A DNA stretch of 64,000 nucleotides from an uncultured Chthonomonadaceae bacterium. Lineage in GTDB: Bacteria > Armatimonadota > Chthonomonadetes > Chthonomonadales > Chthonomonadaceae. Each line of letters starts with the position of its first letter. Positions within the stretch are counted from its first letter, which is position 1. Location of the stretch: assembly GCA_963835065.1 (NCBI GenBank), contig CAWIEK010000044.1, forward strand, positions 128,001 through 192,000. Direction: 5' to 3'. Of this stretch, positions 54,253-60,762 are shown one piece after another. Made by a program: the position numbers and the translations under genes. The notes below the pieces were generated by a model. That model had not been told where the DNA came from, did no database searches, and saw only the letters and a program-made list of their open reading frames with translations.

Positions 54253-54607
54253 ACCACCCGCTGCGCTAGAGACACAGAGACACAGAGAGGGAACACAGAG
54301 AAAGAAAAGAAGAGGAGAGAAGGAACCGCGAAACACACGAAATAAACGAAAAAAGACCAAAAGAAGAAAGAAGAAAGAACATGGGCAAATCCGAAGACGC
54401 CGCGCATGTTTAGAACAAGCAGGCTTCTCTTCTCTAGTTTGTAATCCTGTTTAATCCTTCTAATCCCATTAATCCCGTCTATTTCTTTTGTCTTTCCTTT
54501 TTTCGTCTTGGTTCGTGTGTTTCGCGGTTCCCTATCTCCCCTCTTTTCTTCTTTTCTTCCTCTGTGTTCCCTCTCTGTGCCTCTGTGTCTCTAGCGCAGC
54601 GGGTGGT
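54253..54607. repeat. Nested long inverted-repeat element (ACACAGAG > ACACACGAA > AATCC units)
   Basis: Perfect 27-bp termini; imperfect arms of about 110-125 bp. Confidence 0.9.
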
Positions 54608-55301: not shown

Positions 55302-55679
55302 ATGGCAGTCGAAAATTTCGATACCTATGTGTTTGAAAACGGATTGTTTGCGCCGTTCGCGCAGGCGGCGCAGGACATGCTGCAGTGGACAGATCATCTG
55401 GCGCAGCAGGGCTACGCTTCGCAGGAACAGGTTTGGGGGCAGTATCCCGACGTGTACATCAAGGTGTATGAAGCCAAACCCGGTTCCGCAACCGCGTTCC
55501 AGTATGCCGCGATCCTCAATCTGGTGCGCTTTCCGCACCACGTTTATATCCGCGACATCAACGGCTTACTCCAACTGCTGCACCAACTGCTGCCCCTCTT
55601 TGCCCTGCACAGCCGTCCCGAACAGGACACCGGCGAGGCGTTATTCGGCACACAGGGCGCGGATGAACAAGATGCGTAG
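55302..55679 (+). CDS. Hypothetical protein
   Basis: GAAGGAG RBS; host-like codon usage. Confidence 0.75.
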   Translation: MAVENFDTYVFENGLFAPFAQAAQDMLQWTDHLAQQGYASQEQVWGQYPDVYIKVYEAKPGSATAFQYAAILNLVRFPHHVYIRDINGLLQLLHQLLPLFALHSRPEQDTGEALFGTQGADEQDA

Positions 55680-55683
55680 GGTT

Positions 55684-55862
55684 TCAGGGAAGACCAGAAG
55701 CGCAGGACGCAACAGCAGTTGGAAACATTGCTATTGCAAGGTCTGGAAAGCGGAACACCGGTAGAAGTAACGAACGAGTGTATTCAGCAGAAACGGGCGG
55801 CGCTGCTGGCGCGTATGGAACAGGAAGGCAAGCAGGGCGACTGAAGGTGTCAAGTTGCTGCC
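55684..55862 (+). pseudogene. Remnant of parD (3' half) plus the first codons of parE
   Basis: Gap-free 179-bp homologue of 58663-58841; reads REDQKRRTQQQLETLLLQGLESGTP.. Confidence 0.85.
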
Positions 55863-55897: not shown

Positions 55898-56317
55898 CTA
55901 CGGTTCTCGCATCAGGACGCGAAAACCTGCCTGCTTGAAATGCTTATCCGTTGTCAGCGCGTCTGTAATGCCGCGCTCCTGCATCACGACAAAAGATAAG
56001 CAGTCTACCAATCCCCACTCTGTGTCAGGGCGTGTTCGATACAGGTGAAATGCGCGGGCGTATAGTTCCTCCGACATCGGCACAATTTCAACGAGCGGAT
56101 CAACTTCCAGCGTTTGGAGCAGGTTAATGGCAACAGCGCGGTTACGCTGACGCGACAAGGCGTTGCCAATTTCAAGCAACACTGCGCGAGTCGTGATCAG
56201 GGGTGTACTGTTCTGCTTTATCTGTGCTGCTACTTCAACAGCCTTAGCATGAAACTCATCCGCCGTTATTGAAGCGGCAACCGCAAACGCCGTATCCAGA
56301 AAAACTCTATTCGTCAT
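55898..56317 (-). CDS. vapC: VapC (PIN domain) toxin
   Basis: VFLDT, LLEIGN, WGLVDCLSFVVM, LTTDKHFKQAGF. Confidence 0.93.
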   Translation of the reverse strand: MTNRVFLDTAFAVAASITADEFHAKAVEVAAQIKQNSTPLITTRAVLLEIGNALSRQRNRAVAINLLQTLEVDPLVEIVPMSEELYARAFHLYRTRPDTEWGLVDCLSFVVMQERGITDALTTDKHFKQAGFRVLMREP

Positions 56318-56573
56318 GCGCCGTTTCCTGCACTTTCTCGACGCCGTACAGATAGTGGTCAATGTTTGCCGAATAATCAGACGGGAACCCTTCCAGATTG
56401 GCCGCTAAAGCAGCGTCCAGAAAGGAATGGGGCTTGCCTGTTTTGCCCAACTGTGGGTCGGCTTCAGGCAGCGACTCTATGATGATGCGAATGCGCGTGT
56501 TCGCTTCCAGTTGTACCGGTTCGTTCGGATGAATTACGGAACCGTCGTAAACGGCTTCAAGTGTTTGTGTCAT
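56307..56573 (-). CDS. vapB: Antitoxin (AF2212/DUF104-like)
   Basis: TLEAVYDGSVIHP..DYSANIDHYLYG; overlaps vapC; GGAGG RBS. Confidence 0.88.
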   Translation of the reverse strand: MTQTLEAVYDGSVIHPNEPVQLEANTRIRIIIESLPEADPQLGKTGKPHSFLDAALAANLEGFPSDYSANIDHYLYGVEKVQETAHDE

Positions 56574-56635: not shown

Positions 56636-56922
56636 AACCCGCCGTCCGGCATCGTGACCGAACGGCGGGTTGCTGTGTGTCGGACAAACGGGAACAGGCG
56701 TTACGCGATCAGGTCGCGTATGGGTGTTCCTTTTTCGGTAATGGAAATGGGACGGCCTACCGGAGTCATGAACGACTTGGCGGGGTTCATGCCAAGCAGG
56801 GTGGCGACGGTGGCGAAGAAGTCGGCGGTTTGTACCGGCTTGTCGGCTACTTTTGTGCCGTCCGCGTCCGTTGCGCCGTATGCCTGTCCGCCCCGAACGC
56901 CGCCGCCCGCCAAAACCGCGCT
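56636..56922 (-). pseudogene. Displaced 3' end of the DUF1501 gene plus its terminator (direct repeat of 59209-59493)
   Basis: The 222-nt coding part differs from 59272-59493 at 10 positions; hairpin AACCCGCCG...CGGCGGGTT is present in both copies. Confidence 0.92.
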
Positions 56923-57038
56923 ATCCTGTGGCTTCGATTGACTCCAACGAACGTTCAGGGTATAAGGGTAGCCAAAGTGAAACTACTTTGGCGAAGATCG
57001 GCTTTACGACCCTCCTGCTTCTGCCTGCAAGTTGACGC

Positions 57039-58166
57039 CTACATCTGGCTGCGTCGTATGATATAGTCTCTAATGTATGGTTCCTGTAATGCCTTGTTGT
57101 TAGGCTCCAAGTCGAACGCCCTGCCAAATGCTTGAAGAGCATCTGTAGGACTGCCTATGCGATGATAGATTTCGCCGAGTTTTATGTAAGGCAAAGCCCA
57201 ACCCGAACTGTAATTCACCGCAATCTTGTAGGCGTTGATGGCCGAGCTAAAACGACCTTGTTTGCAGCGTATTCTTCCCATGATTGCCCATGCTGTAGAA
57301 GAATTTGGTTCCAATCGCAATGCTGTTGCAAGCGCATCTAAAGCGCTATCTACTCTGCCCATCAGTTCAAAGTGACCTGCGATACGCAGGTAGGATGGCA
57401 CGTACTCTGGATCAGCTTTCACAGCAGTCAAGTAAGCATCAAAGGCTCTGTCATCCAATTCTAAGTTTGAGTAGGCGTCACCGAGGCCAACCCATGCTTC
57501 TCCATTATTGGGGTTTATTGTGACAACTCTCTGATAGCATTTGATAGCGTCTCCAAAGCGGAACTGTTGGCAGAATACATCTCCCAAATTGCAGTAAGCA
57601 ACTTCACATTCCGGGGCAATCTCAATAGCTTTTTGGTAGCATCTCACTGCGTCTTTTAAGCGGGACTGTTGCCAGCACACATCCCCTAAACCACAGAAAA
57701 CAAATGGGTCATTGGGATCAACGCGCATGGCGTGCTTGTACGATGCAATAGCTTCATCGTACCGCTTCAGTCTTTGAAGCACGGAACCCATCCAGTAATG
57801 TGCGTGTGGGTGATCAGGGTTCAAATTCACGGCTTTCGTAAACGCTTCGACCGCTTCTCGGAAACTTCCTTGTTTACGATAACGTTGCCCGATGTTGTAG
57901 TAGGTTTCTGCGTCGTACGATGGAGTTGATTGTTGTTTCGCAGCTTTTGGCTGCTGGTAAGTGGATTGAGATAGATGTTGCTGAATAAGCGCATAAGCCT
58001 CATTGACCTCCTTCATCTTCTCCTGCGCTTTTTCACACAAACGTGGAGAATTCTGAAAACGATCAGGATGCCAAATTTGAGCCATGTCCCTATAAGCTAT
58101 CTTGACATCAGCGAGCAAGGAACCATTAGGAAGTTCTAGTATCTTGTAGCAGTCTTCTATCCTCAT
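57039..58166 (-). CDS. J-domain (DnaJ) + TPR repeat protein
   Basis: YKILEL..WHPDRF..NEAY; multiple TPRs; GGAGG RBS; lower GC. Confidence 0.92.
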   Translation of the reverse strand: MRIEDCYKILELPNGSLLADVKIAYRDMAQIWHPDRFQNSPRLCEKAQEKMKEVNEAYALIQQHLSQSTYQQPKAAKQQSTPSYDAETYYNIGQRYRKQGSFREAVEAFTKAVNLNPDHPHAHYWMGSVLQRLKRYDEAIASYKHAMRVDPNDPFVFCGLGDVCWQQSRLKDAVRCYQKAIEIAPECEVAYCNLGDVFCQQFRFGDAIKCYQRVVTINPNNGEAWVGLGDAYSNLELDDRAFDAYLTAVKADPEYVPSYLRIAGHFELMGRVDSALDALATALRLEPNSSTAWAIMGRIRCKQGRFSSAINAYKIAVNYSSGWALPYIKLGEIYHRIGSPTDALQAFGRAFDLEPNNKALQEPYIRDYIIRRSQM

Positions 58167-58556
58167 GAGAGTTCCTCCGTCCGTCAATACTTCGCAGAGC
58201 CTCTTTGTCGGCAGATTTCGCGCCATGTGCTGTCGTTCACAGACGAAAAGTTGCTGCCCCGCACCTGACAAATGCGTCGCCAGCAACAATCATTTACCAG
58301 ATAACTGCTCGCAATCGAATCAGATTGAATCATCCGCAATATTTCAGCGTCAGACTTTGCGCATAAACACATAATATCCTCCTGTCAGATGGACAACGTT
58401 CGTAAGATGATTAAATATCTGTAGCTCATCTTCCTTCATCAAGGGACTGAAGACTCAAAACTTTACAGTCTTTTCCTTTTCCACGTAAGAGAAACCACAA
58501 AAATTGTGAATTCTGTGTTATAATTGGTGGATTATAGACGTGGAGGGAGAACTGCA

Positions 58557-58823
58557 ATGGCCGTGTTGAACATCTCTTTGCCGGAGAAGATGAAAGATTA
58601 CGTTGAGGAGAGGCTGACTGAGGGAAGCTACAGCAGCACCAGCGAGTTCTTCCGTGATCTAATCAGGGAAGACCAGAAGCGCAGGGCGCAACAGCATCTG
58701 GAAGCGTTATTGCTGCAAGGGCTGGAAAGCGGAACGCCTATAGAAGTGACGGACGAGTATATTCAGCAAAAGCGGGCTGCATTGCTGGCGCGTATGGAAA
58801 AGGAAGGCAAGCGTGGCGGCTAA
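58557..58823 (+). CDS. parD: ParD family (RHH) antitoxin
   Basis: LNISLPE..YSSTSEFFRDLIRED..LLLQGLESG. Confidence 0.92.
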   Translation: MAVLNISLPEKMKDYVEERLTEGSYSSTSEFFRDLIREDQKRRAQQHLEALLLQGLESGTPIEVTDEYIQQKRAALLARMEKEGKRGG

Positions 58824-59148
58824 ACGTGTCAAGCTGTTGCCCGAAGCCGAACAGGACGTGGATGAGGAAAGCGTGTATCTTGCTCAGGAAGCCAGCGCTG
58901 AAGTCGGAATCCGCTTTTACGACGCCGCACATGAAAGTTTCCGCGAACTTCTGGATATGCCGGGTATAGGTAAGGTAAAGGAAGTCAATAATCCGAAACT
59001 TTCTGACATTCGCCAATGGCAGGTGTCCGGGTTTGAGAACTACCTGATTTTCTATCGTGTGTTTCCCGGCGGCATCGAAATCATGCGCGTACTGCATGGA
59101 GCTAGAAACATTGACCACATTCTTGAACGGGAAACCGGTGAAGAGTAA
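58813..59148 (+). CDS. parE: ParE/RelE family toxin
   Basis: AEQD..MPGIG..YLIFYR..IMRVLHGARNI. Confidence 0.92.
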   Translation: MAAKRVKLLPEAEQDVDEESVYLAQEASAEVGIRFYDAAHESFRELLDMPGIGKVKEVNNPKLSDIRQWQVSGFENYLIFYRVFPGGIEIMRVLHGARNIDHILERETGEE

Positions 59149-59208
59149 AGTTTCTGTTGTGGTGATATGTTTCCGTGCTGACAAAGCCTACGCAACAATG
59201 CTGCTTAA

Positions 59209-59244
59209 AACCCGCCGTCCGGCATCGTGACCGGGCGGCGGGTT
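59209..59244. terminator. Terminator hairpin between the convergent parE and DUF1501 genes
   Basis: AACCCGCCGTCCGG...CCGGGCGGCGGGTT with an A-run on the left. Confidence 0.7.
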
Positions 59245-59271
59245 GCTGTGTGAGGCAAATGGGAACAGGCG

Positions 59272-60627
59272 CTACGCGATGAGGTCGCGGATGGGCGTTC
59301 CTTTTTCGGTGATGGAAATGGGACGGCCTACCGGAGTCATGAACGATTTGGCGGGGTTCATGCCGAGCAGGGTGGCGACGGTGGCGAAGAAGTCGGCGGT
59401 TTGTACCGGCTTGTCCGCTACTTTTGTGCCTTCCGCGTCCGTTGCGCCGTATGCCTGCCCGCCCCGAACGCCGCCGCCCGCCAAAACCGCGCTCCACGCG
59501 CCGGGGAAGTGGTCGCGGCCTTCGTTAGGGTTGATTTTCGGGGTACGTCCGAACTCGCCCATCCAGATTATCAGCGTGTTGTCCAGCATGTCGCGCTGTT
59601 TCAGGTCTTTGATTAAAGCCGCCATTGCCGGGTCGTAAATGCCCATCTGCTTTTGGGTGCGGTTGAAGTTGTCCTGATGCGTGTCCCAGCCATCCAGCAC
59701 CACTTCCACGAACCGAACGCCCGATTCCACCAGCCGCCGCGCCATCAGGCAACCCTTGCCGAAGTTGGTGTCGCCATACGCCGCCTTGACCGCATCCGGT
59801 TCCTCAGCAATTTCAAACGCTTTCAAGCGGGGTGAGCGCATCAGTTTGACGGCTTTGGCATAAACCGACTGCCGCCCCTTCACCTTGATGTCGCCCGTTT
59901 GCGCGGCGAAGTCGTTGTCCAGCATACTCAGCGCGGATTGGCGCGTGTCAAAGCGGCGATCATCCACGTTGGACGCATACTGCACATTGAGCAGCGGCTT
60001 GTCGAAGTTCTGCACCACGAGCGGGCCGTACTGTACGCCCAAAAAGCCCGCGCTGTAGCTTGGCCCCGAAATGCTCACAAAGTTCGGCATGTCGCTGTTC
60101 GGATTGCCCAATTCCTCGTTGACCCACGCGCCCAGACTCGGATGCGTCACGGTCGGGTTGGGCGTGTAGCCGGTGTGCATGAGATACTGCGCCCGCTGAT
60201 GGTTGCCCTCTTTGGTGGTCATGCTGCGCACAATCGCCAGATGGTCAGCCACGTCCGCGATCTGCGGCATGTGTTCGCAAATCTGTACGCCGCTTGCCCG
60301 CGTATTGATCGCTTTGAACGGCCCGCCCGTAGCCGCGCCCGTTTTCGGGTCCCACGTATCCAGATGGCTCGGCCCGCCGTTCATCCACAGCAGAATACAA
60401 TTTTTGGGCTTCGCCGCGCCCGCCTTGCCCAGCGCTTTTGCCATTTGCGGATCAAGGAACTGCGCGAACAGCATGCTCATCAGCCCGCCGATCCCCAGTT
60501 TCACAAACCCGCGCCGGTTCAAGTCCGCGCTCCACAAATCTATCGGGCCGGGGCAACTCCCCCCGTTTTCCTCGCGCATTCGCGCTTCTTCCTGATCTTC
60601 CAGTTCGTCCAGTTCGGTGTGGTGCAT
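59272..60627 (-). CDS. DUF1501 domain protein with a twin-arginine motif
   Basis: NRRGFVK; LWMNGGPSHLDTWDPK; WDTH; GEFGRTP; GRDH; GGAG RBS before ATG 60627. Confidence 0.93.
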   Translation of the reverse strand: MHHTELDELEDQEEARMREENGGSCPGPIDLWSADLNRRGFVKLGIGGLMSMLFAQFLDPQMAKALGKAGAAKPKNCILLWMNGGPSHLDTWDPKTGAATGGPFKAINTRASGVQICEHMPQIADVADHLAIVRSMTTKEGNHQRAQYLMHTGYTPNPTVTHPSLGAWVNEELGNPNSDMPNFVSISGPSYSAGFLGVQYGPLVVQNFDKPLLNVQYASNVDDRRFDTRQSALSMLDNDFAAQTGDIKVKGRQSVYAKAVKLMRSPRLKAFEIAEEPDAVKAAYGDTNFGKGCLMARRLVESGVRFVEVVLDGWDTHQDNFNRTQKQMGIYDPAMAALIKDLKQRDMLDNTLIIWMGEFGRTPKINPNEGRDHFPGAWSAVLAGGGVRGGQAYGATDAEGTKVADKPVQTADFFATVATLLGMNPAKSFMTPVGRPISITEKGTPIRDLIA

Positions 60628-60640
60628 GGAGGTCTCCAAA

Positions 60641-60762
60641 AAGTAGTCAGAAGTGAGTAGTCAGTAGTCAGTAGAAATGCCTGTCTACTCAGAGCCTTGT
60701 ATATTCGCCAAAGTCATGAGCAGAACGGCTACTGACTACTGACTACTCACTTCTGACTACTT
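60641..60762. repeat. Inverted tandem-heptamer element (GTCAGTA)
   Basis: Perfect 34-bp arms 60641-60674 and 60729-60762, including mirrored variant units. Confidence 0.93.

Follow-up and report, generated by a model that had tools for sequence, protein, structure and literature searches.

We analysed a 64,000-nt stretch of DNA (the window) from an uncultured Chthonomonadaceae bacterium, positions 128,001 to 192,000 of contig CAWIEK010000044.1 in assembly GCA_963835065.1, in which the 3′ end of a gene encoding a DUF1501 protein occurs twice, on either side of a small block of cargo genes. The contig, here called C44, belongs to a bin of 8.0 Mb that is 92% complete. The intact host gene lies on the reverse strand at 59272..60627 (PF07394, E-value 2e-124; start placed at 60627 by the gene caller), and its nearest DUF1501 homologues are in Chthonomonadaceae (Armatimonadota) records. 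Repeat copy R2 (59209..59493, 285 nt, reverse strand) comprises the present gene tail (the final 222 nt of the coding sequence), a spacer and a terminator hairpin (59209-59244). The other copy, R1 (56636..56922, 287 nt, same strand and orientation), is an orphan DUF1501 tail of 74 codons in an open frame, with no gene start and with a hairpin at 56636-56671. Between them lie 2286 bp of unique DNA with a GC content of 47%, compared with 60% for the DUF1501 gene. The genes there are a reverse-strand gene for a 376-aa protein with a DnaJ domain and TPR repeats by Pfam (J-TPR; 57039..58169, ~46% GC, best matches at 23-37% identity), a forward-strand parD antitoxin gene (58557..58823; a weak Pfam ParD/RHH match, above the cut-off) and a forward-strand parE toxin gene convergent on DUF1501 (58813..59148; Pfam ParE_toxin, E-value 5e-13). 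The cargo end meets the orphan start at a non-homologous joint, 56922..56923, seen in this assembly only. Pfam, tRNA and Rfam scans of the window revealed no integrase, tRNA or Rfam RNA, and the recombinase families PF00589 and PF00239 had no match on contig C44. The repeats described in the original prediction, made from the window alone, were recovered at the same coordinates, and its account of a cassette without an integrase holds, the cargo being J-TPR, ParD and ParE only.

The two repeats are 94.1% identical, with one 2-nt indel past the stop codon. Their coding parts (222 nt, 74 codons) differ at 10 sites (4.5%), all 10 at codon position 3, as the original prediction had counted: eight changes are synonymous, one is GAC/GAA (D/E) and one is TAA/TAG, and the tails encode the same 73 residues apart from the single D/E exchange. 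Under random hits, the probability of 10 of 10 third-position differences is (1/3)^10, or ~2e-5. A terminator-like hairpin closes both copies (fold z −4.0 and −2.3), and the related genome G002 also retains this hairpin behind its own DUF1501 gene. The all-third-position pattern supports the earlier view of the orphan as an allele that diverged under purifying selection and not as a decayed local duplicate. We infer that the incoming allele was the R2 gene tail with the cargo, and that R1 is the displaced old end. The focal orphan looks recent because it shows no change at position 1 or 2; alternatively, it could have been refreshed by recombination.

Past the orphan, the gene order is a vapBC-like pair, a relic of parDE, a 125-aa open reading frame (ORF) and purE. 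The pair consists of an AF2212-like, vapB-like antitoxin gene flanking the orphan (56307..56573, reverse strand, Pfam) and a gene for a PIN-domain, vapC-like toxin (55898..56317, reverse strand, Pfam; start from the gene caller). The relic (55684..55862, forward strand) is a second repeat, absent from the original prediction; it combines the 3′ part of parD with the start of parE from an older parDE allele and is 84% like the cargo copy. The ORF (55302..55679, forward strand), which has no Pfam or PADLOC match, stands head-to-head with purE, is conserved in G001 and G002, and delimits the variable region on its far side.

This region was compared with three public sequencing runs sharing a small portion of sequence words (X1, X2 and X3, the last from a different study than the other two). 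A single X3 contig of 1768 nt, ~93% alike, joins 59282 to 56710 and omits 2571 nt, giving an empty site: it passes from DUF1501 by way of a single tail and terminator into vapB, and beyond 56922 it continues as DUF1501. Further on, it carries a full parD where the focal stretch has the relic. The existence of this haplotype, which lacks the cargo block, shows that the block was inserted, in agreement with the original prediction. Among the remaining contigs, one from X1 connects parE to the terminator hairpin (~97% identity, short side 40 nt), one from X2 provides a 33-nt link between the parD relic and the 125-aa ORF, and another from X1, a single and weak one of depth 4, continues from the terminator region, at 56709, into other DNA. 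Given these varied arrangements, related populations are polymorphic for toxin-antitoxin genes in the gap between purE and DUF1501. The vapBC/parE and ORF/parD joints may be captures by one homologous anchor with deletion. Searched against 41 family genomes, the cargo DNA gave weak parD-region matches only, in three of them, and a degenerate DUF1501-tail pattern had no match in the metagenome contigs.

The original prediction treated the locus as a one-off, which does not hold, as about 30 such scars were found in the same genome. A self-comparison of the genome revealed dozens of local repeats, and a final automated scan of 4773 genes retained repeats that covered 40 or more coding nt at 80% identity or higher, lay 0.4-12 kb away and occurred in no more than five copies, tandem duplications being excluded. 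It returned orphan 3′ ends downstream of the gene in 31 cases and upstream in 2, and the mirrored scan for 5′ ends returned 3 versus 3. The 31 downstream orphans represent 29 distinct events (~0.6% of genes), because contigs C8 and C20 hold one locus in two haplotypes and a C35 event was counted from both convergent genes. The final scan misses a uvrA event found by the self-comparison and lists an HpcH event solely in the 5′ set. It replaced early raw scans (59 versus 15 and 40 versus 6) because high-copy intergenic repeats and tandem duplications had inflated their matches. In the window, the segments 54253-54607 and 60641-60762 are members of high-copy intergenic inverted-repeat families present on most contigs. 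The strong 3′ bias likely reflects selection for an intact, promoter-linked gene, because the gene keeps its own promoter after a 3′ event but would not after a 5′ event. The clearest 5′-type case (L063, C1:77461-84583) is a gene that appears from its sequence to be of the hsdM type, with a truncated 170-aa start copy 4.9 kb upstream.

A curated set was assembled from 36 examined events, of which 31 were kept; five were set aside, namely the duplicate haplotype on C8, an event at an Rhs-like gene and three in accessory hosts of low GC content. The host genes are unrelated and, with names read from Pfam matches, include recA, dnaA, ppdK, galT, a uvrA-like ABC ATPase gene, kdpD, a lactate permease gene and a second DUF1501 gene. 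Cargo across the events includes PIN, HNH and gp49/helix-turn-helix pairs, and a scan of 22 selected proteins detected defence-like genes resembling HEC-01, Septu, Tiamat and type IIG restriction-modification systems. In the curated set, the repeat starts 42-341 nt before the stop codon (median 104) and the median cargo is 1.9 kb. Differences between gene and orphan fall 57/46/171 on the three codon positions over 1277 codons, with 2 premature stops and frameshifting indels in 6 events; 18 of the 80 non-synonymous codons stem from a single frameshifted event. GC skew is positive in 25 of 36 cases, compared with 54% of all genes, a skew too weak to indicate replication polarity.

Several individual loci deserve description. 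At L058 (C63:128133-136391), the ppdK tail has been displaced twice serially; the breakpoints and the C-terminal tips differ, and the flank of the outer orphan is kept in G002. L047 (C20) and L062 (C8) are one lactate-permease locus assembled twice at 98-99% identity, with identical displaced tail and joint, and an IS5-like element has been added within the cargo of one copy. At L045 (C16:71529-77914), the host is a tyrosine recombinase gene with a displaced 75-nt tail, and the 5.3-kb cargo contains DUF1559 prepilin-like, redoxin and racemase genes. Behind recA (L056:3509-8250), the cargo holds a Tiamat-like (TmtA) defence gene split over three frames, and recA itself appears frameshifted in the assembly. 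At C49:432227-447550, 15 kb between 61-bp direct repeats include a tyrosine recombinase gene and are probably a conventional island. In addition, the genome contains eleven local duplications of 0.7-5.7 kb, 91-99.7% alike, whose differences are mostly at third positions and five of which are head-to-tail with an overlap or gap of 0-9 nt; five of the eleven sites are C12:67267-77834, C30:36232-38431, C37:154696-160353, C41:109882-116750 and C41:163419-173689.

Scars of this kind were also present in relatives. Four like events were found in the sister genome G001, including its own displaced ppdK and uvrA tails. In terms of density, there were 2 events in 660 kb of G001 and none in 220 kb of G002, 200 kb of G005 or 200 kb of G013, where fewer than one was expected in each. 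Orthologues in G001 or G002 were available for 10 loci; the flank that follows the orphan stands behind the intact orthologue in four of these (ppdK, uvrA, DUF3500 and HpcH), and the start of the cargo does so in none, which fits the orphan as the old gene end. Comparisons at recA, dnaA, the lactate permease, C50 and C41 gave no informative empty site. With G002 as outgroup, nine events showed 26 derived changes at positions 1 and 2 in the orphan versus 7 in the gene copy (42 versus 33 at position 3). In the curated set, synonymous changes also lean from GC to AT in the orphans (77 versus 45, p 0.005). Both patterns fit copies that started as functional alleles, the orphans decaying later.

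We consider it likely that the insertion was added without an integrase, by tandem recombination of a short piece of DNA from a related strain, whose homology was confined to the final 285 bp of the gene region. The donor piece would start inside DUF1501, run through the terminator and parDE, and end 116 nt past J-TPR. Its ends were likely joined, giving a circle of ~2.57 kb, which would enter by one RecA crossover within the shared tail; on an alternative linear route, a donor strand anchored in the gene would have its free end joined to the displaced host strand, with the same product. Either way, the gene would stay whole and the old tail would be left downstream without a promoter. Without cargo, the same process would yield duplications like the eleven described above, which may be natural merodiploids produced by transfer between strains. 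The parDE cargo, likely derived from the same locus of a different strain, should tend to counteract loop-out of the block. Homology-assisted capture, which the original prediction had offered as an alternative, fits this evidence.

The feature works like insertion-duplication and stands outside the integrase-driven class. A laboratory precedent is described in PMC3240628, where linear DNA with one-sided homology to the end of lacZ in Escherichia coli gave partial duplication in 56 of 60 clones and deletions by homology-facilitated illegitimate recombination (HFIR) in four. The duplications spanned 109-950 bp in the 14 sequenced clones, and the authors attribute them to trimming, recircularisation and a single crossover (PMC3240628). 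As at our locus, a gene-end duplicate of variable length flanks foreign DNA without an integrase; unlike it, the system reported there was a laboratory plasmid with identical homology, whereas here natural alleles 80-99% alike are involved at ~30 chromosomal genes. HFIR itself, as described in PMC3240628 and PMC2884548, also combines one homologous anchor, one non-homologous joint and kilobase inserts, much like the focal locus with its 285-bp shared tail on one side and non-homologous joint on the other, and uses 3-10 bp of microhomology. According to these accounts, however, HFIR generally deletes recipient DNA, whereas at our locus the recipient tail survives as a second copy, and the X3 contig shows a clean 2571-nt skip. 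In the displacement arrays of Rhs, contact-dependent inhibition and type VI secretion genes described in PMC5361080, each newly arriving 3′ part likewise sits next to a conserved anchor and pushes its predecessors further downstream, a serial displacement also seen at ppdK here; the tails reported there are variable toxin domains with immunity genes, whereas here the same housekeeping tail is regained and unrelated cargo is gained.

A number of observations weigh against this one-anchor tandem entry. As to the route of entry, neither DprA nor Ku was detected in the focal genome, which is 92% complete, though it encodes ComEC and DprA occurs in five of five relatives. A run-length test for conversion tracts gave p 0.66 at the focal event, and the Fisher combination over 19 events (p 0.003) was driven by three of them. 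The curated 31 events were picked by hand out of 36. No cargo donor was found, the J-TPR search returning generic TPR proteins only, at the identities given above. J-TPR and the joint 56922/56923 were covered in none of the three runs, and 57074-58477 was uncovered, where absence of cover is not evidence of absence. The sister genomes gave no empty site at 6 of the 10 loci compared, including the focal one, where G001 and G002 carry other genes behind DUF1501. The bin includes a second haplotype at 98-99% identity (C8/C20), a level matched by five of the eleven large duplications with 98.3-98.9%. Finally, at the 10 focal sites the X3 allele is like R2, the gene copy, at seven and like the orphan at three, and all the contigs compared are only 92-97% alike.

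These mixed outgroup alleles leave the reverse polarity viable, although we regard it as unlikely. On that account, the locus already carried parDE and J-TPR, and what entered was the orphan tail with vapBC from an empty-site strain; homology on the purE side would have provided its anchor, and its DUF1501 end would have been joined illegitimately, as in classical HFIR. It yields an identical final sequence, the X3 haplotype is exactly DUF1501-terminator-vapB, and derived third-position changes relative to G002 number 7 on the orphan branch versus 1 on the gene copy. However, it requires a prior separate event to place the cargo, and it is the cargo that is low in GC and without a close relative. 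At the other loci, moreover, the post-orphan flank is the ancestral neighbour in 4 of 10 and the cargo start never is.

More doubtful still is an assembly artefact, in which a long-read assembler, or chimeric reads, would have fused strains that differ in the DNA following DUF1501. The unconfirmed joint in X1-X3, the duplicated haplotypes and allelic tandem copies in the bin, and the frameshifts in conserved genes such as recA speak for it. The eleven duplications may, alternatively, be haplotypes merged by the assembler, and the haplotype-level identity of five of them means that some may be assembly products. Nevertheless, the focal copies are 4.5% apart in coding DNA, compared with 1-2% for the co-assembled haplotype, and the 31:2 bias in one direction and the decay of orphans after displacement also speak against a merger. 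Furthermore, the C8 and C20 haplotypes have the same joint, like scars occur in the separate G001 assembly, and random chimeras would not be expected to rejoin the same locus.

Tandem entry by homology is also to be weighed against site-specific integration. The original prediction had suggested a protein-coding attachment (att) site; in the form considered here, an islet or cis-mobilisable element would use an att core in the DUF1501 coding sequence with a recombinase acting in trans, as in the e14/icd type. Integration of prophage e14 uses an integrase. The geometry of icd/icdC described in PMC13626634 is the same, a substitute tail restoring the gene and the displaced tail lying at the far end with mostly silent differences; e14 as described there is a 15-kb prophage at a fixed site, whereas no recombinase was found here and breakpoints vary. 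The genome does encode six tyrosine and two serine recombinases (PF00589, PF00239), all on contigs other than C44. Among 78 host and cargo proteins scanned, one host gene excepted, there was no match to integrase or resolvase families. Across the 31 curated events, no 5- to 8-mer recurs at the joints more often than in random gene-end windows, the GC content of the joints is not raised over the null and they are spread over the three codon phases (10/12/9). Breakpoints differ even within one gene: they lie 201 and 341 nt before the stop of ppdK in the two displacements here and 369 nt in G001, and 278 nt before the stop of uvrA here and 223 nt in G001. The recurrence of the breakpoint in related genomes, proposed as a check, was not seen, since no duplicated coding tail occurred at the 60 DUF1501 homologue loci (of 80) with at least 2.5 kb downstream, where four short matches lay at or past the stop. 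The depth-4 X1 contig, in addition, joins other DNA to the same terminator elsewhere, at 56709. With no shared motif, differing breakpoints and ~30 unrelated target genes, the att-site idea is unsupported and we judge it very improbable.

Equally improbable is a local duplication of the gene end with cargo inserted later between the copies: large tandem duplications do occur in this assembly, but a duplicate that is not translated would accumulate changes at every codon position, and third positions account for 10 of 10 focal and 171 of 274 pooled differences. A route through complementary DNA or a retroelement was rejected by reasoning, because the cargo extends past the terminator and parDE lies on the opposite strand.

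The geometry of gene-tail displacement, one-anchor capture and hotspots free of mobile genetic elements (MGEs) are each already known. In the open-access literature, with subscription journals mostly outside, we found no description of displaced tails at housekeeping genes across a whole genome. The focal locus is ordinary in content, and its value lies in the genome-wide pattern. PMC5635113 reports that 27% of bacterial gene-transfer hotspots are without integrase or transposase; like the loci here, the MGE-free hotspots described there place accessory genes beside core genes by housekeeping recombination only. In the double-crossover model set out in that source, DNA is replaced and no duplicate is left, whereas the present scar implies additive entry by one anchor. 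Double crossover would cover the spread of cargo, not its first arrival beside a core gene, and one-anchor additive capture would fill that gap, leaving a scar that can be counted and polarised. We put forward, tentatively and as a possibility that we hold less firmly than tandem entry at the focal locus, that displaced gene tails may be the readable scar of a general, recombinase-free and additive route of gene gain, in which a neighbouring strain contributes a piece of 0.5-8 kb that is inserted in tandem at its own locus, with as little as 50-300 bp of shared gene tail sufficing, and seeds MGE-free hotspots, with allelic tandem duplications as the cargo-free end. If so, such hotspots would be seeded with toxin-antitoxin and defence genes, here Septu-, Tiamat- and HEC-01-like cargo, and the donors, order and age of gene gains would be readable from single genomes.

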